NCBI GenBank assembly: GCA_013265495.1
Contig: MU057947.1
Coordinates: forward strand, 1,064,048 to 1,128,047
Direction of reading: 5' to 3'
Length of the DNA stretch: 64,000 bases
Source: Vicugna vicugna
Taxonomy: Eukaryota
Under the pieces are notes generated by a model. It worked only from the letters and a program-made list of their open reading frames with translations. It was not told where the DNA came from and made no database searches. Below are positions 7,640 through 59,900 of this stretch, in pieces; position 1 is the first letter of the stretch, and the number at the start of each line of letters is the position of its first letter. The position numbers and the translations under genes were made by a program.

Positions 7640-7706
7640 TGCGTGGCTCCCTGTGTGACTGTGGGCAAGCTCCTGTCCTCTCTGAGTCTCCGTGTCCTCA
7701 TTTCTT
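7640..7706 (+). mobile_element. MIR SINE, left half (split by L1 insertions)
   Basis: ctgtgtgactgtgggcaagctcc...tctctgagtctccgtgtcctcattt matches the MIR core up to ...cctcatct. Confidence 0.75.
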
Positions 7707-7871
7707 TATTTTTTCTTTTTTTTGTGTGTATATATTTCCCTGTGCTATACAGTGTAATCTTGTTTATCTATTCTACAATTTTGAAATCCCAGTCTATCCC
7801 TTCCCACCCTCTACCCCCCTGGTAACCACAAGTCTATATTCTCTGTCCATGAGTCTATTTCTGTCCTGTAT

Positions 7872-10800
7872 TTATGCTTTGTTTTTGTTTGTTTGTTTGT
7901 TTTTGTTTTTTAGATTCCACATATGAGCGATCTCATATGGTATTTTTCTTTCTCTTTCTTCACTTAGAATGACATTCTCCAGGAGCATCCATGTTGCTGC
8001 AAATGGCATTATGTTGTTGGTTTTTATGGCTGAGTAGTATTCCATTGTATAAATATACCACCTCTTCTTTATCCAGTCACCTATTGATGGACATTTAGGC
8101 TGTTTCCATGTTTTGGCTATTGTAAATAGTGCTGCTATGAACATTGGAGTGCAGGTGTCATCCTGAAGTAGATTTCCTTCTGGATACAAGCCCAGGAGTG
8201 GGATTCCTGGGTCATATGGTAAGTCTATTCCTAGTCTTTTGAGGAATCTCCACACTGTTTTCCATAGTGGCTGCACCAAACTGCATTCCCACCAGCAGTG
8301 TAGGAGGGTTCCCCTTTCTCCACAGCCTCTCCAGCATTTGTCATTTTTGGATTTTTGAATGACGGCCATTCTGACTGGTGTGAAGTGATACCTCATTGTA
8401 GTTTTGATTTGCATTTCTCTGATAATTAGTGATATTGAGCATTTTTTCATGTGCTTTTTGATCATTTGTATGTCTTCCTTGGAGAATTGCTTGTTTAGGT
8501 CTTCTGCCCATTTTTGGATTGGGTTGTTTATTTTTTTCTTATTGAGTCGTATGAGCTGCTTATATATTTTGGAGATCAAGCCTTTGTCGGTTTCACTTGC
8601 AAAAATTTTCTCCCATTCCGTAGGTTTTCTTCTTGTTTTATTTCTGGTTTCCTTTGCTCTGCAGAAGCTTGTAAGTTTCATTAGGTCCCATTTGTTTATT
8701 CTTGCTTTTATTTCTTCTAGGAGAAAATTTTTGAAATGTATGTCAGATAATGTTTTGCCTATGTTTTCCTCTAGGAGGTTTATTGTATCTTGTCTTATGT
8801 TTAAGTCTTTAATCCATTTTGAGTTGATTTTTGTATATGGTGTAAGGGTGTGTTCTAGCTTCATTGTTTTACATGCTGCTGTCCAGTTTTCCCAACACCA
8901 TTTGCTGAAGAGACTGTCTTTATTCCATTGTATATTCTTGCCTCCTTTGTCGAAGATGAGTTGACCAAAAGTTTGTGGGTTCATTTCTGGGCTCTCTATT
9001 CTGTTCCATTGGTCTATATGTCTGTTTTGGTACCAATACCATGCTGTCTTGATGACTGTAGCTCTATAGTATTGTCTGAAGTCTGGGAGAGTTATTCCTC
9101 CAGCCTCTTTCTTTCTCTTCAGTAATGCTTTAGCAATTCTAGGTCTTTGATGGTTCCATATAAATTTTATTATGATTTGTTCTAGTTCTGTGAAATATGT
9201 CCTGGGTAATTGGATAGGGATTGCATTAAATCTGTAGATTGCCTTGGGCAGTGTGACCATTTTAACAATATTGATTCTTCCAATCCAAGAGCATGGAATA
9301 TCTTTCCATTTTTTAAAGTCTTCTTTAATTTCCTTCATCAATGGTTTATAGTTTTCTGTGTATAATTCTTTCACCTCCTTGGTTAGATTTATTCCCAGAT
9401 ATTTTATTACTTTGGGTGCTATTTTAAAGGGGATTGTTTCTTTACTTTCTTTTTCTGTTGATTTATCGTTAGTGTAAAGAAAGGCAACTGATTTTTGAAC
9501 ATTAATTTTGTAACCTGCTACCTTGCTGAATTCTTCGATCAGCTCTAGTAGCTTTTTTGTGGACCTTTTAGGGTTTTCTATATATAGTAACATGTCGTCA
9601 GCATATAATGACACTTTTACCTCTTCTTTTCCAATTTGGATCCCTTTTATTTCTTTCTCTTGCCTGATTGCTGTGGCTAGGACTTCCAGGACTATATTGA
9701 ATAGGAGTGGTGATAGTGGGCATCCTTGTCTTGTCCCAGATTTTAGTGGGAAGCTTTTGAGTTTTTCACCGTTGAGAACTATGCTGGCTATAGGTTTGTC
9801 ATATATAGCTTTTATTATGTTGAGATATGTTCCCTCTATACCCACTTTGGCGAGAGTTTTTATCATAAATGGGTGTTGAATTTTATCAAATGCTTTTTCT
9901 GCATCGATTGAGATGATCATGTGGTTTTTGTCCTTTCTCTTGTTGATGTGATGTATTACATTGATTGATTTGCGTATGTTGAACCAGCCTTGTGTCCCTG
10001 GGATGAACCCCACTTGGTCATGATGTATAATCTTTTTTATGTGTTGTTGGATTCTATTTGCTAAAATTTTGGTGAGGATTTTGGCGTCTATGTTCATCAG
10101 TGATATTGGCCTATAATTCTCTTTTTTTGTAGTGTCTTTGCCTGGTTTTGGTATCAGGGTGATGGTGGCTTCATAGAATGAGTTTGGGAGTATTCCCTCC
10201 TTTTCAATCGTCTGGAAGAGTTTGAGAAGGACTGGTATGAGTTCTTCTTTGTATGTTTGGTAGAATTCCCCGGTGAAGCCGTCCGGTCCTGGACTTTTAT
10301 TTGTAGGGAGGTTTTTAATTGCTATTTCTATTTCCTTTCTAGTGATCGGATTGTTCAAGTGTTCAGTTTCTTCTTGATTCAGTTTTGGTGGACAGTATGT
10401 TTCCAGAAACTTGTCCATCTCCTCTAGGTTATCCAGTTTGGTTCCATATAGTTTTTCATAATATTCTCGTATGATATTCTGTATTTCTATTTTGTTTGTT
10501 GTAATTTCTCCATTTTCCTTTCTTATTTTGCTAATTTGTGCTCTCTCTTTTTTCTTCTTTGTGAGTTTGGCCAGAGGTTTGTCGATTTTATTTACTTTTT
10601 CAAAAAACCAGCTTTTGGTTTGGTTGATTTTTTCTATGGTCTTGTTAATCTCTATTGTATTTAATTCCTCTCTGATCTTTATTATTTCCTTCCTTCTGCT
10701 GCTTTTTGGGGCTTTTTGTTCTTCTTTTTCTAATTGATTCAGGTGGTGGGTTAACTTGTTTATTTGAGATTGTTCTTCTTTTTTGAGGAAGGCCTGTATC

Positions 10801-11699
10801 GCTATAAACTTCCCTCTTAGCACTGCCTTTGCTGTGTCCCATAGGTTTTGAGTGGTTGTGCTTTCATTATCATTTGTCTCAAGGTATTTTTTAATTTCAG
10901 CTTTGATTTCCTCATTGATCCATTGTTTTTTCAATAACATATTGTTTAATCTCCATGCTTTTCTTTTTTTCTCCTTTGTTTCTCTGTTGTTGATTTCCAG
11001 TTTCATGGCATTGTGGTCAGTAAAGATGCTTGAGATAATTTCTATCTTCTTAAATTTGTTGAGGTTTCTTTTGTGTCCAAGTACATGATCGATCCTGGAA
11101 AATGTTCCATGTGCACTTGAAAAGAATGTATATTCTATTTTTTGGGGGTGTAATGCTCTGAAAATATCCACCAAATCTAGTTTTTCTATTGTAGTATTTA
11201 ATTTCTCTGTTGCCTTGTTTATTTTCTGTCTGGAAGATCTGTCTAGTGATGTTAATGCAGTGTTAAAATCTCCAACTATGATTGTATTCCCATCAATATC
11301 CCCCTTTATCTCTGTTAGTAATTCTTGTATGTACTTAGGTGCTCCTATATTGGGTGCATATATATTAACGAGTGTAATATCTTCATCTTGTATCACTCCT
11401 TTAATCATTATAAAATGTCCTTCTTTATCTTTCTTTATGGCCTTTGTTTTAAAGTCTATTTTGTCTGAAATCAGTACTGCAACACCTGCTTTTTTGGCTT
11501 TTCCATTTGCATGGAATATCCTTTTCCATCCTTTCACTCTCAATCTATATGTGTCCTTCTCCCTAAAGTGGGTCTCTTGTATGCAGCATATTGAAGGTTC
11601 TTGCTTTATTATCCAGTCTGCCACTCTATGTCTTTTGACTGGAGCATTTAGTCCATTAACATTTACAGTAATTAATGATAGATGTGTGTTTATTGCCAT
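7872..11699 (-). CDS. LINE-1 ORF2p (APE endonuclease, reverse transcriptase, CCHC domain), 1275 aa, altered C-terminus
   Basis: EN motifs NVNGLN, QETH, IYAPN, GDFN, RIDH, TDHN; RT motifs YRPISL, QGCPLSP, YADD, YLG; C-terminal [18 protein letters not shown]. Confidence 0.97.
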
Positions 11700-12096
11700 T
11701 TTGAACTTATCTTTGCAGTTGAATTGGTATATCCTCTTTGTTCCTTTCTTCTTCCTTTTGTGGTTTGGTAATTTTCCTTTGTATTATCATGGATTTTATT
11801 TAATTTTTGTGACTCCCTTGTAAATTTTTGACTTGTGGTTACCCTTTTTTGTAAATCTATTAACCTATACCCGTTTTTAATAAACTGATAATAACATGAT
11901 CTCAAACCCATCCTACTGTTAAAAAAATTTAAAAAAGAAAGAAAAAAAATTCTATATTTCCCTGCCTCCCTCTCCCACTCTCAGTGATTTGTATGTCTTC
12001 TTTTATAATTTCGTGTTTTCTTTATTTGTAATTCATGAGTTATCACCTTTCCAGTTGTACGTTTCTCATTTCTGTAGCATCCTGCTGCTTTTCTAT

Positions 12097-12995
12097 TTAG
12101 AATAGCCCTTTCAATATTTCTTTTAGCATGGGTTTAGTGTTGCTAAACTCCTGCAGCTTTTTTTTGTCTGTGAAACTCTTTATTTCTCCTTCTATCCTAA
12201 AGGATAGCCTTGCTGGATAAAGTATCCTAGGCTGCATCTTTTTTTCATTCAGGGCTTTGAATATATCTTGCCACTCCCTTCTGGCCTGTAGTGTTTGTGT
12301 AGAGAAATCAGCTGAGAGCCTTATGGGGGTTCCCTTGTAGTTCACTCTTTGCTTTTCTCTTGCTGCCTTTAGAATCATTTCTTTATCCTTGACTCTGGCC
12401 ATCTTGATTATGATATGTCTTGGTGTGGGTCTATTTGGGTTCTTCCTGTTTGGGACCCTCTGAGCTTCCTGTACTTGGATATCTGATTCCTTCTTTAAGT
12501 TTGGGAAGTTTTCAGTCATGATTTCTTCAAAAACCTTTTCAATCCCCTTTGATCCTTCTTCCCCTTCTGGGACCCCTATTATGCGAAGATTGGGACGCTT
12601 TATATTATCCCATAGGTCCCTTATGCTATTATCATTATTTTTTATTTGCTTATCTTGTAGTTCTTCTGAATGGGTGCTTTCTGTTGCCCTGTCTTCTAGA
12701 TCACTAATTCGTTCCTCTGCATTAACTAGTCGGCTTTGCACAGCTGTTAGATCATTCCTCATCTCTGTCANNNNNNNNNNNNNNNNNNNNNNNNNNNNNN
12801 NNNNNNNNNNNNNNNNNNNNNNNNNNNNNNNNNNNNNNNNNNNNNNNNNNNNNNNNNNNNNNNNNNNNNNNNNNNNNNNNNNNNNNNNNNNNNNNNNNNN
12901 NNNNNNNNNNNNNNNNNNNNNNNNNNNNNTCTTTCAGGGGATTCCTCTTGTTCTTTTAATTGGGAAAGGTTTCTCTGCTTCTTCATCTTGCTCAT
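12097..12995 (-). CDS. LINE-1 ORF1p (coiled coil, RRM, CTD), interrupted by an assembly gap
   Basis: N-terminus MSKMKKQRNLSQLKEQEE (ATG 12995). After the gap: ERISDLED, LWDNIKRPNLRIIGVPEGEE, ENFPNL, TPRHII, ILKAAREK, PIRLSADFS, ARREW, YPARLSF. Frame across the N-run cannot be verified. Confidence 0.9.
12771..12929. other. Assembly gap (159 N) inside L1 ORF1
   Basis: Run of n characters. Confidence 1.
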
Positions 12996-14738
12996 ACCTC
13001 TCTGGCACTGTGGTTTATGGAGTATCAGTTGTCTATTTTGGATCTTAAGGATTTTATCTATCTAATGCCTATTTAGGAATAGAACTTAGGGAAAAAAAAA
13101 GAAAAAAAAAAAGAAAAAAAAGAAAATAAGAGAGAGAAAGATTTTTAAAAGAAGGGAGAAAGAGGGTTTGAAAACAGTGTATAATAATAGAAGAGCGGGT
13201 TGAAGCAGAGTATTAATCAGGTTGAGACGTCCTTTTAAAACATTTAAAAAAAAACAAAAGAAAAAAAAAGGGGTGGGGAGATGAATAGATGTATTTGAAG
13301 CCTGTGTCTAATCAATAACAGGACATCAAAACCCAAGAGAAATAGAAATGAATTAAGAAGTAAAAATTAAGAGAGTAATTGAAAATAGAACAGGTAAAAA
13401 CAGATTTAAAAAACAAACAAAAAACAAAAACAAAAAACAAAACAAAAAAAAGGGGTTGTCAGTGTTCTCCTGGAGTGTGTGTGCTTTTAATGTGAAATCC
13501 TTCTGTCTTCGTCCTGTTTTGGAAGCTCAGCTTGTTTTCATAGGCCTTCCGTTGGCGCCCTCTTCTGTGCTGCTCCCAGCACCTGTCGGCAAGCAGATCG
13601 AGCCTCCTCCCAACAGGGGGTCAGATGCAGCTCTCCTCTGCTGCGGGCGGGCGGGTCACTGCCCTTCCGGATGCCTCAGTCAGATGTTGCAGACTGGCCA
13701 GGCAGGAGGGCTGGTCGTGCCGCCTCCCAGCACCGCGGTCAGGGGCTGTGTTCCTGCCCGACAGGCGGGGGCCGCTCTCCCTCTGCCTGCGCCGCCGGTA
13801 GCTCCGCTGCTCTGTGCGGCTGCGCGCTCCGCCCTGGTCGGCGCTCCGCCCTGGCCGCGCTCCGCGGGTGGGCTCGGGGAAGACCAAGGGGCAGCCTCGT
13901 CCCTGCTCCAGCCAAGACCCAGCTCCTTGTTTGTCTTTGTGGAGCAAGTTCTCTGAGGGACCAGGATGGAAGGATCCTATCTGCCCTGGGCTGTAGGCCC
14001 GTCTCAGTCTGGCCTTTGAGGCTGCTGAGCGCTTCGGTGTGGATGCAGGTTTCGCCCCTGCCCCCGCCTGGGTGCTAAGCGCCGGAGAATATGGCGGCTG
14101 TGCCTGGGCCCCGCCTCTCTTCCCCTGAAAAGTTTCCGCGGGTTTTCAGAGATGGGGGTATGCACCCTTCCCCCGAGAGCACATCAACCTTGCTGTTTTA
14201 TGGAGGGCCCAGGTTGTTCTGTCCTGTACACCCACAGCCCCGGCGCCCAGCCCCTTGCAGTCCCCCGGAGCTGCCTCCGTGCAGCCGCCCCCGTCCTCCG
14301 CCCGGCTTGTGCAGCCTGGCCCTGCCCGCCGCTGCCGGCCCGCGTCTCAGGCTGGGTGTCGGGGGGACGCTCTGTGCCCGTTTAACTTAGTTCTGTCAGA
14401 CAAGGGCTGCTCTGTACAGATCCGAGCCTCGGAGGCTCCCCCTCCGTCCCGCTGGCCTCTCAATTGGAGAGGGGAGACCCAGCGAGCAAGCGCCAGTCCT
14501 CCTTTGCCGCTCCCTCCCCGCGGGACCCGTCCCGCGCTGCTTTGCCTTTTGTTCTTTCTTTTTTCCTTTTCTCCTACCAGATTTTTGGCGTCTTTATCTT
14601 TTGAAGAGGGTGATGATCTGTTGGAGTTCCGCAGGTGCTCTGGTTGGCTGAGTGGGTCTGTAGATGTGGGTCTTGGTGTATTTGTGGGAGAGGGTGACTT
14701 ACGAGTGTTCTTCTACTCCACCATCTTGCCTCTTCCTC
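12996..14738 (-). promoter_or_regulatory. L1 5'UTR / internal Pol II promoter, CpG-rich core ~13600-14540
   Basis: Lies upstream of ORF1; dense CpG; YY1-like CAAGATGG near the 5' end; A/T-run block at 13090-13450. Confidence 0.85.
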
Positions 14739-14746
14739 TATTTTTT

Positions 14747-14825
14747 ATTTTTTATTGAAGTATTGCCAGTTACAATGTGTTCGTTTCCCGTGTACAGCAT
14801 AGTGATTCAGTCATTCATGTACATA
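14747..14825 (-). mobile_element. Very short, older L1 3'-terminal fragment
   Basis: tttattgaagtattgccagttacaatgtg...tgtacagcatagtgattcagtc matches the L1 termini at ~42690 and ~57955. Candidate TSD cgtgtcctcatttcttt (7691-7707) / cgtgtcttcattcttt (14826-14841), followed by aaa. Confidence 0.75.
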
Positions 14826-37269: not shown

Positions 37270-39570
37270 GGGTGCTGTCTGAGCAGAGGCGGAAGGTGTG
37301 CAGCCCGGCGGTGTTTCAGCAGAGAGAAGGGCAGGGAGCACTGGTAGTTTGCAGAGAAAAGCCAGTGGGCCTGTTCTGCCCAGGGACTTGGGAACCTAAC
37401 CAGAGCACACGGGAAACTAGCCCATCCAACAGCCCTGCTTACAGTGGCCTTTGAACAGAAAGCACGGCCGTGGCTTCACCCAACCAGGAAATTCAGTGCC
37501 TACCCTTGTCTGCCTGGGGCCCCAAACAATACCTGTCTGGACTCGGGTCCCGTCCTGCTGCCCTGGAAGGGCAGGGAAGCTGATTCATTGCCAATTTATG
37601 GCTGGATCTAGTCCCTAGTCCCGGCCATCTAGGAAGCCTGACTGAAGAACTCAGGCACCCTCAGAGCCCTCCTACAGCCTCACTCACACTGGAAGCAAGA
37701 CAGCAGTTCTGTCCAGCTGTTCCCAGTCAGTGAGACACCCACCGTCCCCATCCTCAGGGCTCCAACAGTTGCCTTGCTCCCAGAACAGACCATCACAGCA
37801 GACGTTACACAGCGCCACCCGCACAAGTTATAAGCAGACACACCCAGAAACCCGGACTGGGCTGATGAGCGGAGTGAAGAACTGTCTCTGCCAGAGCAAC
37901 CTGCAAGTCGGGAAGAGAGACTGATGATGCAGGTAACAACAAAAGGAATCAAGGGCCACGAAAAGCCAGGTAACTGTGACACCACCACAGGAAACGGATA
38001 AAGCTCCCATAACTGACCGTAAGGAAATGGGGATCTATGAACTGCGCAAGACTTCGGAGTAGTCCTCTTAACAAAGTTTGGTGGACTGAAAGAACACACA
38101 GACAACTGCACAAAATAAGGAAAACAGTTCACAAACAAAACAAGAAGATTGACATAGCAATAGAAACCACAAAAACGAACGAACGAACGAACTGAAATCC
38201 TAGAGGTGAAAAATGATGGTAACTGACCTGGAGAATTCAATAGAGAGTTTCAGAGGAGGAATAAAGACTTTCGCAAATAAACAAAAGCTGAGGGAGTTTA
38301 TTACCACTAGGATTGCCTTATGAGAAACGGTGAAGGGAGTTCTTTGAGTGGAAGAAAAGTATGCTGATTAAAAACATAGGCAACAGAAGACTCACTGGTA
38401 GTGCTAAATCTGTAGTCAAAATTGGATTCTGTAATTTGGTGATGGTAGTACATAATTCACTTACAACTCTAGTTTAAAAGTTAAAAAAGTGAATGTAGTG
38501 AACAGAACCACATTAAAAACAATCTGTTACTAGTTACACAGGGTAAAAAATGTAAGTTGTAGCAGCAGTAACCTAAAATGTGAGCAGGAGAAGTCAAAGT
38601 GTAAAGGCTTGGAATTCTGTTGAAGTTGACTGTTGTCAGCTTGAAATGGGGGTTATCATTTTAAGGCATTGTATGTAAGCCTCATGGTAGCCACACAGGA
38701 AAAGCCTGTAGCAGTTACACAAAAGAACATGATAAAGAAGTCAGTGCATGCTGACATCAGCAGAGATCAAAACATGAAAAAAGGCAGGAGGCTGGGAAAC
38801 AGGAAACAACAGATTCACAAAAGAACCAGAAAACAGTGAGCAAAAGGGCAGTAATAGGCCCTGATCTATCAGTAATTACTTAAACAAACATAGTAAATTC
38901 TTCAATCCGAAGGCATGGAATGGCCAAATGGATTAAAAACGGAGATCGAATGCTATGCTGCCTACAACAGACTCACTTCAGCCTTAAGGACACACACAGA
39001 CTGAGAGTGAGGGGATGGAAAAAGCATTTCAAGCAAATGATTACATATATATATATACACACACATATACATATACATACAAACTAATAGACACACACAC
39101 ACACACAGAACTGTAAATATTTATGCTCCCGACTTTGGAGCACCTGATTATATAAAGCAAAGTCTCACAGAGCAAAAAGGAGAAACCAACAGTAACACAA
39201 TAATAGCTGGGGACTCCAATACCCCACTGGTAACAGTGGGTCGATCATCCAGACAGAAAATGAGTAAGGGAAGAGTGGATGTGGATGACATGGTAAACCA
39301 GTAGGTCTAAGAGGCGTGTTCAGAACATTCTGTCCAGCAGTGGCAGAATGCACATTCGCCTCGAGTGCGCTGGGACGTTTTTTAAGATAGGCCATATATG
39401 AGGCCACAAAGCAAGTCTTAGCAAATTCAAGAAGATTGAAATCATCCCTTGGTCTTCCCTGACTGCAATGACATGAAGCTGGAAATCACTGAGAGATGGA
39501 AAATTCACGAACACGTGGAAATTGTGCAACACTCTTCTGAACAACCAATAGATCAAAAAAAGAAATTGAA
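37270..39570 (+). mobile_element. Old L1 5' half (5'UTR, ORF1 remnant, long spacer, EN region)
   Basis: gaaatcctagaggtgaaaaat; aaagctgagggagtttattaccactag; tgctgcctacaacagactcacttc; aaattcaagaagattgaaatcat. Confidence 0.8.
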
Positions 39571-40119: not shown

Positions 40120-40820
40120 GCAGAACTAAACATACTCTGACCATAGGACCTAGCAATCACACTCCTTAGTATTTACATAATCACACTATTTGTTTATGTC
40201 CAGAAAAACCTACATGTGGATGTTTATAGCAGCGTTAGTGTAATGGCCAAAACTTGGAAGCAACCAACATGTCCTTCAGTAGGTGAATGGATTAATAAAC
40301 TTGGTCCATCCAGACAATGGAATATTATTCAGTAATAAAAAGAGATGAGTTTTCAAATGGTGAGGAAATATAAATGCACGTTACTAGGTGAAAAAAAAGT
40401 CCATCTGAAAAGGCTACATATTGTGTGATTCTGACTGTTGGATGGTCTGGAAAAGGCAAAACTGGAGACAGCATACGGGTCAGTGGGGCTGAGGATGGCG
40501 AGTGGGAAGAGTGGGTGGAGCACAGAGGGTTTTTAGGGCAGTGATGAGACCGTGTCTGACACTGTAACGATGGGTATGTGCCATTAGGCATTTGCCCAAA
40601 CCCATAGAAGGTGCAACGCTGAGAGTGGCCGCTGATGTAAAAGGTGGATAGTGGGTGACGGTGACGTGTCTGTGCAGGTTTTTCGGCTGCAGCATGTATA
40701 CCACCTGGAGAGGGTTTGATAGTGGGGGCGGATGGGCGTGTGTAGAGGCAGGGAAATCTCTATGCCTTCCATTCGACTCTGCTATGAACCCCAAACTCTT
40801 AAAAACAAAGTTAATTACAA
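40120..40820 (+). mobile_element. L1 (L1MC-like) 3' end
   Basis: tgtttatagcagcg...ttggaagcaaccaacatgtccttcagtaggtgaatggat...ggaaaaggcaaaact. Confidence 0.8.
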
Positions 40821-42679: not shown

Positions 42680-43740
42680 ATTTTTTATCTTTATTGAGGT
42701 ATAGTGATGTACAATATTATATAAGTTACAAGTGTACAACATGGAGTTTCACAATTTTTAAAGGTTATACACCATTCATAGTTATTATAAGGTGTTGGCC
42801 GTGTCCCTGTGCTGTGCAGGGTGCTCTTGTAGCTTGTTTTATACACAGCAGTTTGCACCTCTAAGTCCCATACCCCTGTCTCCCCCTGCCCCTTCCCTCT
42901 GCCCACTGGTAACCACAGTTTGTTCTGTGTATCTGTATCTGTTTCCTTCTTGTTATAGTCGCTAATTTGCTTTATTTTTAAAACTCCACATATAAGCAAT
43001 ATCATACAGTATTTGTCCTTTTCTGTCTGACTTGCTTCACTAAGCCTAATACCCTCCAAGTCTATTCATGTTGTTGCAGATGGCAAAATTTTGTTCTTCT
43101 TTTTAATGGCTGAGTAGTATTCCATTGTATAAATACACCACCTCTTCTATGTCCAGTCATCTGTGGATGGACACTTAAGTTGACTCCATATCTTGGCGAT
43201 TGTAAATAATGCTGCTGTGAACATTGGGGTGCGTGTATCTTTTTGAATTAGTGTTTTGGGGTTTTTTTTTTTTGGGTGTATGCCCAGGAGTGGAATTGCT
43301 GGGTCATACGGTAGTTCTATTTTTAGCCTTTTGAGGAACCTTCATACTGTTTTCCACAGTGGCTGCTCCAGTTTACATTCCCACCAGCCATGTACGAGGG
43401 CTCCCTCTTCCCCACACCCTCGCCAACATTTGCTGGTTGTGATCTATTTGATGATAGCCGTTCTGACAGGTGTGAAGTGATACCTCACTGTGGTTTTAAT
43501 TTGCTTTTCTCTGGTGATTAACGATGCTGAGCCTCTTCCCACGTGCCTGATGGCCATCTGTATGTCTGCTGCAGAAAAATGTTTACTGAAGTCTTCAGCC
43601 CGTTTTTTAATCAGGTTGTTTGACTTTCTGATGTTGAGTTGTTTGAGCTGTTTATGTATTTTGGGTATGAACCCCGTATCAGTCATAGCTTTAGCAAACG
43701 TCTTCTCCCGTTTCATAGGTCGTCTGCCCTCGGTGCTTTT
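42680..43740 (-). mobile_element. 5'-truncated L1 (3'UTR plus ORF2 C-terminus)
   Basis: Remnant translations LSEASQTEKDKYCMILLICG and [13 protein letters not shown]; terminus tttattgaggtatag. Confidence 0.9.
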
Positions 43741-54409: not shown

Positions 54410-56904
54410 AGAGGTTTTTGTTTTTTAAAATTACTTTCTTTCCTTTGAGGTCATTGCAGCTTCGCATGCAATTGCAGGAAATAATGCAGAGAGATCCAGG
54501 TTGGTCCCTCGTGCCCTTTGCCCAGTGGGAACATCTTGTAAAACTGTAGAGCAATATTGCATCCAGGATATTGTTACTGATCCAGTCAAGTATGAACATT
54601 CTATCACCACAAGGACCCCACATGGTGTCCCACCACCTGCCTCCTGCCCCGTCCCTCCTTAAACCCTGGCGACCACTAATCTGTTCTCCATTTCCATCGT
54701 TTTGTCATTTGAAGGGTATTGTATAGATGGAATCATACATTGTGAAACAGTTTGGGATTGGCTTTTTTCACTGAATGTAATTCTCTGGAGATTCATGTCA
54801 TTTATAGCACAGATCAGTAGATTGCTACTTTGTATTGCTCTGTAGTGTCCCACGTATGGATGGACCACAGTTTTTTTTTAACCATTCATCCACTGAAGGA
54901 CAATCTGAGTTGTTTCCAGTGTGTCTGTTATGAATAAAGATGCACAGATAGTCACACGCAGGTTTCTCTCTGAGCAGGTCTCCATGTCTCTGGGATGGTG
55001 GCCAGGAGCTTAACTGCTGGGTCATCTGTTTAGTGTTCATGGGCATTTAGTTTTCGTGAAAACTGCTGAAACGTGTGCCAGAGTGGCTGTACCATTTTAC
55101 AGTCATCTAGTTTCTCTGAATTCCTGCCAGCCTTTGGTGTTGTGACTATTTTAAAATTTACCCGATCCAGTAGGTATGTAGTGATAACAAATTGTGGTTT
55201 TAATTTGCATCCCTCTAGTGGCTAATGATGTTGAACATCTTTTCATGTGCTTGTTTGCCATCTGTGTCTCCTCTTTGGTAAAATGTGTCTTTATGTCTTT
55301 TGCTCATTTTCTAGTTAGATTGTTTGTTTTTTTTATTGTTGAGTCTGACAGTTCTCTGTGTGGTCTAGATATATTAGTCCTTTGTCAAATACGTGGTTTG
55401 CAGATATCTTCTCCTGTTTGTAACTTGTCTTTTCATCATGTCAACGGGATCTTTTGCAGAGCAGCAGTTTTAACTTTGATGAAGTCCAGTGTATCAGTTT
55501 TTCCTTTTATGATTGTGTTTTTTGATACCAAGTCTAAGAACTCTTTGCTGAGTCCTCGATCATGAAAACTTTCTCTTATGTTTTATTTTCTAAAACTTCT
55601 GTATATTTGCCTTTAAATCTGTAATCTGTTTGCAGTTAATTTTTGTATAAGTTGCAAGATATAGATTAAAGTCCTTCTCTTCTTCTTTTTTCTTTTTTTC
55701 TTTTGCCTTTGGATGTCCAGTTCATGTTCCAGCACCATTTGTTAAAAAGGCGATCTTCCCTTCATTGAATTGTTTTTGCATATTTGTGGAAAATCCGTCT
55801 GGGCTCTTTGTTCTGTCCCATTGTCTATATGTCCTTGTGCCAATACTGCAGTCTTGATTACTGTACCTATATAGTAAGTCTTGAAATCATGTAGGCTGAT
55901 CTGCCTTAATCTACTTTTTCAAAACTGTTCCAGTTATTCTAGTTCCTTTGCCTTCCCATACGCACTTCAGAGTAGTCTTGTCTACATTTATAAAGTCTCT
56001 TGCTGGGGTTTTGATAGAAATTACATTAAACCTGTAAAGTAGTTTGAGAAGCATTGACATCCTTATTATGTTGAGTCCTCCAATCCATGAACATGGTATA
56101 TCTTTACACTTACTTAAATCTCATTTGATTTACAATGTTGTGTACTTTTCATCATATAAATAAATCCTTGTATGTGTTTTGTTAGATTTACATCTAATTT
56201 TATTGTTTTGAGAAATTATAAGTGATTTGTGTTTTTAATTTTGGTGTCCACATATTTGTTGCTAGTATATAGAGATAAGCTGAATTTTGACTGTTTATTT
56301 TGCTGAACCCACTTATTAGTTCTGAGCGGTTTCCTTTCCGTGTATTCCCTGGGAATTTCTATGTAGACGGTCATGTCATCTGCAACTAGGGATAGTTTTG
56401 TTTCTTTTTCTTTTCAATCTGTATGCATTTCATTTCCTTTTCTAATCTTGTCACACTGGCTAAAGTTTCCAGCACTATGTTTGATGAGAGTGATGAGAAC
56501 AGACATCCTTGCCTGCTCCCCATCTTAGTGGGAAAGTGTTCAGACTTTCTTCACTGGGTATAATGTTAACTGTAGGCTTTTTGTAAATACTCTTTATCAG
56601 GTTAAGGGAATCCTCCTCTATTCCTATTTATCTGAGAGCTTTTTAAAAATTATAAATGGATGTTGAATTTTTATCAGGTTCTTTCTCTGTACTGATTGAT
56701 ACGATCATGAGAATTCTCTTCCTTAGCCTGTTAACATGGTGAATTACACTGATTGATTTTCAAATATTGAACCAGCCTGCTTCCCTCAGTAAACCCCGTT
56801 TGGTCATGGTGAATAATTGTTTTTATATATACTGAATTCTTTTTGATGATATATTTTGAAGAAGTTTTGTACTCATGCATGAGGGATAGTCATCTGTGGG
56901 TTCC

Positions 56905-56937
<33 letters not shown>

Positions 56938-57930
56938 TTTTTTTGGTCTGGTTTTGGTATCAGGGATAATGTTAGCTTCATAAAATGAAGTTTGAGATTT
57001 TCCTGTTTCTTGTTATAATGAAAGATTTTCTATTGAATTGTGGACATTTTGTTTTATGCTATGAGTCTTTGTGTCTTTTTAAACTTTCCATCTTAACAGT
57101 CTTTTAACTAAGGAGCCCCGCCCTGACGGGGCGAGAGAGGGTGCTGCCTTGTTACTACCTGGTGGGTGCAGAAGTCCAGGTCCAGCGCTTGGCTCTTTTG
57201 GCATCAGAGAGGTGGAAGTTACTGTGGTGGGGGTGGCCTCATGGCTGCTGGGGGTGGTGGGAGTCCTGACTCCCCGCTGAGCCTCCTGGGACCCCACCTC
57301 AGTGGGGAGAAGAAGGGACACCTCATTACTGCTCAGTGGGGGTGGAAGCCTAGGCTCCCACACAGTTTCCACCGACTCTGCAGGAATAGGGAGATGCCTC
57401 ATTTCCAGCGATAGGAATGAAAGTTCTGGCTCTGACACCACCTCAGGGAAGCTTTTGGGTGTCTTGTCATAGCATCACTGGGGTCGATGTCCAGGATCCC
57501 CATTTGGCCTTTGCTGGTGTATGTGAGGGTGGGGTCAAAGTTTTCCCTGTGGTGTTTGATTGGAGCAGAGCTGTTATTGTCTAGATTTTTCTGTCCTGTT
57601 CGGCTGCTCCTTTCTGGGTCCTTTGCATTGAGATAGTAGGCTTTTGTGGGGGCCTTTTCGGTCTGTACCCATGGCATTTCCCATTGCCCAGCTTTGCCAG
57701 CTTCAAGTCTGGGGTGTATGAGGCCAAAAGGAAACCCAGAGAACTCCCCACCATATCATTCCTTGGGTCCCAAGACCTCTGGCTGCTCTAAATTCTTCTT
57801 TCCAACTTTCAGAGTCTCTTATACTTGTTTTATACATAACATTCAGGGCTTTTGATCAGGGTTTTACTGTACTCAGTATGAGGAATAGGGAAAAACTGTA
57901 TCTCCCCCATTCTCCTGGAAGCAGCTATTT
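54410..57930 (-). mobile_element. Old L1 (L1MC-like): 3'UTR, ORF2 remnant and 5' region
   Basis: Long homology to the reverse complement of ORF2 (gtggttttaatttgcat; ccaatccatgaacatgg; gacatccttgcct); 5'-end-like ...cccattctcctggaagcag. Confidence 0.85.
56907..56935. repeat. (TG)n microsatellite
   Basis: Direct read. Confidence 0.95.
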
Positions 57931-57944
57931 CTTAGATAATTTTT

Positions 57945-58020
57945 AAAATTTTTATTTTTTATTGACGTGCAGTTGATTTACAATGTTAAGTTTCAGGTGT
58001 ACAGCACAGTGATTCAGTTA

Positions 58021-58052
<32 letters not shown>

Positions 58053-58725
58053 CATATATTTTCAGATTCTTTTCCATTATAGTTTATTACAAGAAATTGA
58101 AAATAACTCCCTGTGTTATATAGTAGGTCATTGCTGTTTATCTATTTTATATGTAGTAGTATGTATCTGTTAATCCCAAGCTCCTAATTTATCCCTTCCT
58201 CCTTTCCCCTTTGGTAACCATAGTTTGTTTTCTATGTCTGTGAGTCTATTTCTGGTTTATAAATAAAATTTGTATTTTTTTTTTTTAGATTCCACATATA
58301 AGTGATACCATATAGTGTTTGTCTTTCTCTGTCTGACTTACTTCACTTAATATGATAATCTCTAAGTCCATCCATGTTGCTAGAAATGGCATTATTTCAT
58401 TCTTCTTTATGGCTGAACAGTATTCCATTGTACAAATATACCACACCTTCTTTATCCAGTCATCTGTCATTGGACACTACAGTGGTTGCTTCCATGTCTT
58501 GGCTATTGTAAATAGTGCTGCTATGCACATGGGGGTGCAGGTGTCTTTTCAAATTAGAGTTCCCTCCGGATATATGCCCAGGAGAGGGATTGCTGGATCA
58601 TAGAGTAAGTCTATTTTTAGTTTTTTGAGGAATCTTCATACTGTTTTCCGTAACGGCTGCGCCAAACTGCATTCCCCCCAGTGGTGTAGGAGGGCTCCCT
58701 TTTCTCCACATCCTCTCCAGCATCT
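57945..58725 (-). mobile_element. 5'-truncated L1 with complete 3' terminus
   Basis: Remnant ...WMDLEIIILSEVSQTEKDKHYMVSLICGI* at 58285-58470; full 3'UTR to tttattgacgtgcag. Confidence 0.9.
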
Positions 58726-58729
58726 TTCT

Positions 58730-59900
58730 CTACTAAGTGCATCATCTGTGCCAATTCTGGGTCAGTTTTGATTGCTTCTTTTTTTATATTTTAAAATATA
58801 TATTTTCTGGAAATTAAGAACACGAAACTTTTCAACAATTTTTGGCATGTACAAAATTATCTAGGATTTTAATTGAAAATGTCTTTTTTTTTCCCTGTTC
58901 ATGTCGTTTTTCATTATAGGCTATTGCAAGGTACTGAATACAGTTGCCTGCGCTGCACAGTGGGACCTTGTTTATCTGTTTTATATACAGTGCTTGCTAC
59001 CTGCAAATCCCGAACCTCCAATTTATCCCTCTCCACCGCCTTTCCCCCAGTAACCACAAGTGTGTTTTCTGTGTCTGTGAGTCTGTTTCTGGAGTTTTGG
59101 TTGCTTCTTTCCCCCTCATTATGAGCTGTATTTTCCTCTGTCTTTGCATGCCTGGTAATTTTTGATTGGTTGCCAGACAGTGCACGTTTTAGCTCGCAGG
59201 CGGGGGGACATTTTTGTATCCCGTAAACACCTTTGAATCTTGTTCGTGGACCCAGGTAGTTGGCTTGTAAAGAGTCTGATCTTCCGAATCTTGCTGTTAA
59301 GCTTTGTTAGTTGAGGCTGGATCTGCATTTAGTCAGGATGCCTCTTAGTAACCAGTGCCTAGCCAAAGCCGAGGCCTCTTGAATTGTAAGGTTTTCAGAT
59401 CTCGCCGCTGGACGCAGGAGCCGCGCCCGACGCTGAGTGCGCCCTGGGTACCGTTCCCTCTGATCCTTCCGTGGGGTCTGCTGCCAGGCTCAGGTACGTC
59501 CTCACACACACGCTGGCCAGGATGCAGCTGAAGACTCCACGGGGACCCTCTGCCGTAAAGTTCTCTCTTTTTCAAATTCTCGCCTCTGTAATCCTTTGCC
59601 TCGTGAACTTGAGTGTTCAGTTTTCCAGGCTTTGAACTCCATGCCCTCAGTTCAGGGAGACCGCCTTGCTCTGACTGGGTTTCTTTTCCCTTTTCTGAGA
59701 CCTGGGAACTGCCTCCAGGAGGTGAGCCGGGCGGTCACAGGGCTTACCTCGTCTGCGTCTTGTCTCTGTGGGTCACTTTTCTCTGTTTGATGTCTGGTGT
59801 CTTGTGTGCCACTGTTTCATGTATTCTGTTTTTCTGAGGTTGTCTCAGGCAGGTGAGTAAATCCGGCCTCTGTTAGTCCGTCTTGACTTGAAGCACGGTC
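58730..59900 (-). mobile_element. Old L1 5'-region remnant with nested insert 58782-59092
   Basis: ctttgcatgcctggtaatttttgattggttgccagaca...gtaaatccggcctctgttagtccgtcttgacttgaagc is a typical L1M 5' end. Confidence 0.7.

Follow-up and report, generated by a model that had tools for sequence, protein, structure and literature searches.

Reinitiation of translation after a long ORF generally requires a nearby stop. PMC5972666 describes such reinitiation as inefficient without special elements, and in the SART1 and calicivirus TURBS systems (PMC5972666, PMC3894237) the upstream stop lies a few bases from the next start, the upstream ORF encodes a genuine protein, and coupling depends on an RNA element. 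In human L1, whose spacer is 63 nt and dispensable, translation of ORF2 requires a completed upstream ORF of any identity, a role filled by ORF1 (Alisch et al. 2006, as cited in PMC4091050, PMC5972666 and PMC4072516). Long spacers and small spacer ORFs that aid ORF2 are already in print (PMC4072516, PMC5381506, PMC5872511, PMC6501411). Reinitiation across the long spacer is called inefficient and an IRES is proposed (PMC5381506), reinitiation across such a spacer is held to be improbable (PMC3894237), and the persistence of long spacers is described as hard to explain (PMC4072516). The megabat L1, reconstructed with a 445-nt spacer (Yang et al. 2014, PMC4072516), contains sense AUGs in this spacer, and their removal lowers retrotransposition ∼3.3-fold. 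Loss of the 3' third of the spacer causes a ∼6.9-fold drop and shuffling a ∼8.8-fold drop. The long spacer inhibits overall by 26- to 40-fold; the long spacer of pig L1 is also reported to be inhibitory in assays. Close upstream termination was proposed to aid ORF2 reinitiation in the megabat element, with all AUGs pooled as small ORFs, and the available text of that paper mentions neither one long frame nor an overlap with ORF2 nor conservation among mammals. Two other known features of L1 are relevant here. Primates carry ORF0, a third short L1 ORF of 71 aa that is antisense, lies in the 5' UTR, is primate-specific, and yields a peptide product (cited in PMC5203782 and PMC9252281), and human L1 produces a spliced ORF2-only RNA, SpORF2, in which splicing links a donor near the 5' end with an acceptor ahead of ORF2 (PMC2896524). 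Our literature search of openly accessible text, which included passages of PMC5203782, PMC9252281, PMC3894237, and PMC5972666, turned up no description of one conserved spacer frame.

The window analyzed here, 64,000 nucleotides of Vicugna vicugna DNA, contains an L1 with a long spacer, all features of which lie on the minus strand:

7705..14780 (-), near full-length L1 retrotransposon copy with approximate ends, recognized by ORF1, ORF2, a GC-rich 5' part, and A-rich ends
12097..12995 (-), ORF1, broken by an assembly gap of N at 12771-12929; its stop ends at 12097
7872..11699 (-), ORF2, 1,275 codons open; tblastn aligns it with the ORF2 of related loci
11700..12096 (-), inter-ORF spacer, 397 nt, 45.8% A and 23.7% T by base count
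11690..11911 (-), spacer ORF, 73 codons, in the -1 frame of ORF2; the frame is open for 96 codons
12022..12080 (-), three tiny ATG ORFs of 4, 8, and 4 codons in the 5' spacer, from an ORF scan
11707..11790 (-), nested 27-codon ATG ORF in the +1 frame, which stops 10 nt before the ORF2 ATG
11916..11949 (-), acceptor-like U-rich tract (11949-11921) that runs into CAG; another AG follows 3 nt later
14697..14702 (-), donor-like GTAAGT site, the only GTRAG between the L1 5' end and ORF2

The element is a mammalian L1 with ORF1 domains and a ∼1,275-codon ORF2 downstream of ORF1. ORF1 scores above the Pfam cut-offs for PF02994, PF17490, and PF17489 (Transposase_22/RRM, dsRBD/CTD, trimer), its C-terminal 221 aa are 96% identical to protein P0005, and the closest named proteins are those of pig, bat, and horse at 60-70% identity. 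The final codons of ORF2 look frameshifted in the present copy (7872-7960, -), where the open frame continues into an A/C-rich tail and what we take to be the L1-like C-terminal peptide is found in another frame. A putative, A-rich target-site duplication (14736-14753 / 7704-7721, -) matches weakly, at 16 of 18 positions. The window also contains truncated older L1 fragments (39113-39488, 40220-40341, 42971-43720, and 55173-59091) with 64-77% identity to ORF2 and the 3' part; all are without a spacer, and no second spacer copy is present in the 64 kb.

An earlier note on this DNA had placed ORF1 and ORF2 ∼400 bp apart, which agrees with the 397 nt counted here, and had described a 73-codon ORF, a U-rich tract, an AG at 11917-11916, and a strong Kozak context, all of which are present as described. 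The spacer ORF starts 4 nt past the AG with an ATG at 11911, flanked by A at -3 and G at +4, and the first base of its stop lies 7 nt beyond the A of the ORF2 ATG. Only one further stop occurs in the -1 frame across the whole 397-nt spacer, which contains five additional ATG ORFs (4, 8, 4, 6, and 27 codons). Three nulls of 5,000 dinucleotide shuffles each produced an ATG ORF of at least 73 codons in 0.7-1.4% of trials, and in 0.3-0.7% such an ORF got as far as ORF2 as well; the 73-codon spacer ORF thus exceeds chance (shuffle p 0.003-0.014). Some ATG ORF of any length reached the ORF2 start in 29-35% of shuffles. Three properties that the earlier note had offered as support lose their force. 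Lys, Arg, and Thr make up 34% of the spacer ORF versus 32% in base shuffles (p 0.32), so this richness carries no weight because base composition accounts for it. The position of the stop over the ORF2 start carries no weight by itself because the first codons of ORF2 supply it: the -1 frame stops 4 or 7 nt inside ORF2 in 14 of 16 sequences, including five of seven short-spacer L1s without the long frame. The strong Kozak context is likewise not shared, with G, A, or T at -3 and C, T, or A at +4 in pig lineages.

As judged from protein matches, the spacer frame is not private to the present copy. One other protein cluster matches the spacer ORF, with three 75-aa members (P0002-P0004) that are 89-92% identical and differ from it by an in-frame 2-residue insertion; since protein matches are selected for being open, these members show only that the frame is not private. 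In a phmmer search of 1.84 billion representatives, the spacer peptide recovered itself alone, the ESM Atlas held no usable match to it, and the exact spacer pattern had 0 matches in metagenome contigs. A single ORF1 query against viral and genome contigs and an ORF1 profile against viral contigs gave no confirmed match. Six RNA runs contain 48-59% of the sampled words as contigs, which is not evidence of expression.

More distant L1 lineages were reached by an ORF1 profile search that returned 43 loci, of which 22 span the end of ORF1 to ORF2; the other 21 were dropped before any counts because one spacer end or the ORF2 match was absent. Several hits from the searches (L041, L042, L043, P0271, and P0032) are mammalian L1 pieces within bacterial genome assemblies or under bacterial protein names, most likely host contamination. 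Spacers are 46-81 nt long in ten of the 22 loci, 177 nt in one (L031, which has an internal deletion and was excluded from the long-spacer count), and 323-511 nt in 11, the last representing six distinct copies once L025/26/33/34/35 and L029/30 are each counted once. The -1 frame is open for 72-104 codons in four of the six distinct copies, and an ATG ORF of 76-93 codons is present in two: L002 has a 93-codon ORF with the same end point as the 73-codon spacer ORF, and L003 a 76-codon ORF whose stop lies 11 nt before ORF2. In the remaining two copies, L001 and L017, the frame is broken. By ORF1 identity (96-99%), L001/L002 fall in one pig cluster and L003/L004 in another, and the two clusters are ∼65% identical to each other. 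Over its ORF part, the Vicugna spacer is 65-74% identical (about 68%) to the pig-type long spacers.

Across seven sequences, the ORF region contains three stops in 451 codons in frame versus 40/460 and 18/452 in the other phases, and the 5' spacer has no comparable bias (17/338, 23/329, and 12/339); the phase was projected from the codons of the present copy, and the seven sequences are related rather than independent. A second phase is stop-free too in L001 and L002 (0/66 and 0/65), so T-poor sequence readily stays open. In a rough neutral simulation, in which the present spacer evolved over the observed distance under an HKY-like model with indel lengths taken from the 5' spacer (4,000 runs per setting), the frame stayed free of stops over 65 codons in 0.9-5.5% of runs, and 0.3-1.6% retained an ATG ORF of 60 codons. 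At half the distance these values rose to 4-22% and 1-19%.

A profile built from five peptides found 839 protein clusters. Among the 118 new clusters listed, 96 end in KWQ, mean pairwise identity is 78%, and 117 belong to one pig-type lineage, that of L003. The longest form in this lineage has 120 codons and spans most of a 385-nt spacer, and an internal Met in it aligns with the spacer ORF ATG. Pairwise alignments that pass through A-runs contain many indels whose length is not divisible by 3, and the net frame alone is kept; individual indel lengths therefore lend no support. With the exceptions given here, the ATG position and the net frame are retained across the L1 lineages compared.

Published consensus spacers, read by eye as far as the ORF2 junction, extend the frame beyond pig. 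In the elephant, hyrax, pig, and opossum consensuses of supplement 4 of PMC5381506, 88 codons are open in the -1 frame of the 458-nt elephant spacer, from an ATG at 196 to the ORF2 junction, and 85 codons in that of the 422-nt hyrax spacer, from an ATG at 169 to the junction. From nt 181 onward, none of 21 stop triplets in elephant and none of 17 in hyrax fall in the -1 frame. The pig consensus of the same supplement stops after 48 codons, and no long frame was seen in that of opossum. The further pig consensuses come from supplement 1 of PMC6501411, and one sequence is common to both sets. Among the matches listed in these (14 of 45 places), the frame reaches ORF2 in six of 13 long-spacer consensuses and fails in seven. 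Among the 21 consensuses of the L001/L002 lineage, it reaches ORF2 in 14, meets an early stop in six, and forms an in-frame fusion with ORF2 in one. Every break in the PMC6501411 consensuses is a change in A-run length or 1-2 missing bases; these consensuses also lose bases within ORF2, and the breaks may be consensus errors or real. The junction between spacer and ORF2 is one base shorter in 15 of the 21. Termination then falls on the ORF2 start in two ways, at a +1-frame stop positioned 11 nt inside ORF2 and at the end of a -1-frame ORF of 15 codons. This +1-frame stop is present in the whole L001/L002 lineage (L001:2400-2440), keeping termination on the ORF2 start. With the shorter junction, random A-run lengths would reach the ORF2 start in 4 of 9 cases versus an observed 10 of 15, a weak difference.

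The amino acids of the spacer ORF evolve differently from those of ORF1. The dN/dS of the spacer ORF is 0.68-1.19 (eight pairs) versus 0.14-0.21 for ORF1 (three pairs, one of them saturated), and purifying selection on the spacer ORF amino acids was not detected by dN/dS in the eight pairs. A dN/dS near 1 indicates that the frame is kept and not the peptide, and the frame likely makes no useful peptide. Between the present copy and L001/L002, dN and dS are both ∼0.5 over the spacer ORF region (11700-11911) and ORF1 silent sites are at ∼0.9. This lower divergence hints either that the RNA sequence is itself constrained or that the region has had another history.

We consider it moderately probable that the spacer frame is a translation relay that enables termination-reinitiation of ORF2 across the long spacer. 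Ribosomes finishing ORF1 would reinitiate at the spacer ORF AUG, 185 nt on and past the three tiny ORFs, and would translate the spacer frame as far as the ORF2 start, where termination would feed reinitiation on ORF2. What counts in this scheme would be that translation happens and where it ends, and not the peptide. Translation is the best explanation for the phase-specific avoidance of stops, and from this avoidance, the dN/dS near 1, the end on the ORF2 start, and the human and megabat L1 data we infer that ribosomes coming from ORF1 translate the frame and that their termination at its end supplies ORF2. The earlier note had suggested that the small ORF could relay ribosomes to ORF2, and this part of its proposal gains from an ATG position and frame kept across distant L1 lineages, a drifting peptide, and the lower retrotransposition of megabat L1 after AUG removal. 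Points against it are the broken frame in two of the six fetched long-spacer copies, the breaks in pig consensuses, the opossum consensus without the frame, the second stop-free phase in L001 and L002, the selection of protein matches for openness, the overall inhibition by long spacers in megabat and pig, the inefficiency of reinitiation after long ORFs, and the many lineages that have deleted the spacer (ten of 22 loci at 46-81 nt). Whereas human L1 uses ORF1 as the upstream ORF, the Vicugna L1 would use a dedicated intermediate frame, with the same reliance of ORF2 on upstream translation of irrelevant identity. As in SART1 and the caliciviruses, the upstream stop lies a few bases from the next start, but the Vicugna L1 has neither a nearby UGGGA nor a conserved fold: no TURBS-type UGGGA occurs within 250 nt of the ORF2 start, and the only copy is at 11977, 278 nt upstream.

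The sequence data would be fitted equally well by the opposite effect on ORF2, namely that a translated overlapping upstream ORF draws ribosomes past the ORF2 AUG and holds toxic ORF2p low. The out-of-frame overlap with the ORF2 start and the strong start context in the present copy are as expected for such damping, which accounts for frame conservation and a dN/dS near 1 as well as a relay does, and in megabat and pig assays long spacers inhibit retrotransposition. Removing all megabat spacer AUGs, in contrast, lowered activity 3.3-fold rather than raising it (PMC4072516), and this result is the only observation to oppose damping. Self-damping would presumably also be of little benefit to the element unless host toxicity selects for it, and we regard this explanation as unlikely.

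Splicing is also an unlikely explanation. The U tract and AG would serve as an acceptor and, with the donor-like site at 14702, produce an ORF1-less RNA in which the spacer ORF is a leader before ORF2, resembling human SpORF2 (PMC2896524) except that the putative Vicugna acceptor is not conserved. Of the 267 AG sites upstream of ORF2, the one at 11917-11916, with 17 pyrimidines in 20 positions, ranks second by pyrimidine content and is the best YAG; the sole upstream GTRAG is a perfect GTAAGT. The AG is shared with L001 and present in 13 of 21 L001/L002-lineage pig consensuses, but it is missing in the other eight and in L002, L017, and L025, and among the matches listed (14 of 45 places) it is present in only three of ten pig consensuses with a U tract, although the ATG immediately follows the tract in all ten. 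The L003/L029 lineage has the frame with no U tract. Since the AG is often missing and this lineage lacks the tract, splicing cannot explain retention of the frame. A second long U tract, ending in AAG (13085-13120, -; 20 of 20 pyrimidines), lies ∼90 nt before the ORF1 ATG, so that ORF1 and the spacer ORF are each preceded by a U tract. Splicing and a relay can coexist, and in the putative spliced RNA the spacer ORF would be near the cap with ORF2 still dependent on reinitiation. Support for the earlier suggestion of a splice acceptor and an ORF1-less mRNA is weak: acceptor and donor consensus are present, but relatives do not conserve the AG, and splicing would not free ORF2 from reinitiation.

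That the frame encodes a working third L1 peptide, short, basic, nucleic-acid-binding, and loosely constrained, is very unlikely. Lineages share the ATG position, the frame, and a length of 73-120 codons, the indel between the present copy and P0002-P0004 is in frame and two residues long, and some columns are invariant across five sequences, yet the N-terminus and length are variable, composition tracks base content, a Pfam scan placed no family above its cut-off, and single-sequence searches returned no relative beyond 89% identity. The dN/dS near 1 argues against a third protein, as the description of a third ORF might be read. Unlike primate ORF0, with which it shares only its shortness and its rank as a third ORF, the spacer frame is sense, lies in the spacer, and is older.

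Equally improbable, in our view, is a functionless relic, open by chance in an ancestor and passively preserved by change that is slow and A-biased. Stops are scarce in T-poor sequence, as the second open phase in pig copies illustrates, survival of the open frame at half distance is 4-22% per branch, and some pig copies and consensuses are broken. Over the full path, though, survival drops to 1-6% per lineage, and the frame is nevertheless found in two pig lineages, elephant, and hyrax, with a phase-specific avoidance of stops that is missing from the 5' spacer. The most improbable explanation is that an IRES-like RNA element occupies the 3' spacer or that this region directs a -1 frameshift to an N-terminally extended ORF2p: programs flagged long mammalian spacers as IRES-like (PMC5381506), the region diverges less than ORF1 silent sites between the present copy and pig (dS ∼0.5 versus ∼0.9), and the ORF2 frame is open for 28 codons upstream in the present copy, but the region folds worse than shuffles (z +1.6), the consensus fold of six sequences reaches only -0.96 kcal/mol (computed without pseudoknots), upstream openness of the ORF2 frame varies from 8 to 68 codons, and structure cannot account for phase-specific stop avoidance.

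A conserved relay frame would be one answer to the problem of translating L1 ORF2 despite 400-500 nt of spacer, and it would reduce that problem to two point mutations in a reporter. Such a frame would also recast the history of the spacer and provide an example of a reading frame that is maintained because it is translated. The pig spacer has been regarded as an independent gain (PMC5381506), but it shares the frame and a motif with the Vicugna element and elephant, which points toward inheritance with repeated loss. Evenly balanced, in our judgment, is the wider proposal that the ancestral placental L1 was functionally tricistronic, with a bridging ORF of 75-120 codons open since before the split of Afrotheria and Laurasiatheria, whose translation, and not its product, delivers ribosomes to the reverse-transcriptase gene; the short spacers of human and mouse would then be repeated deletions.
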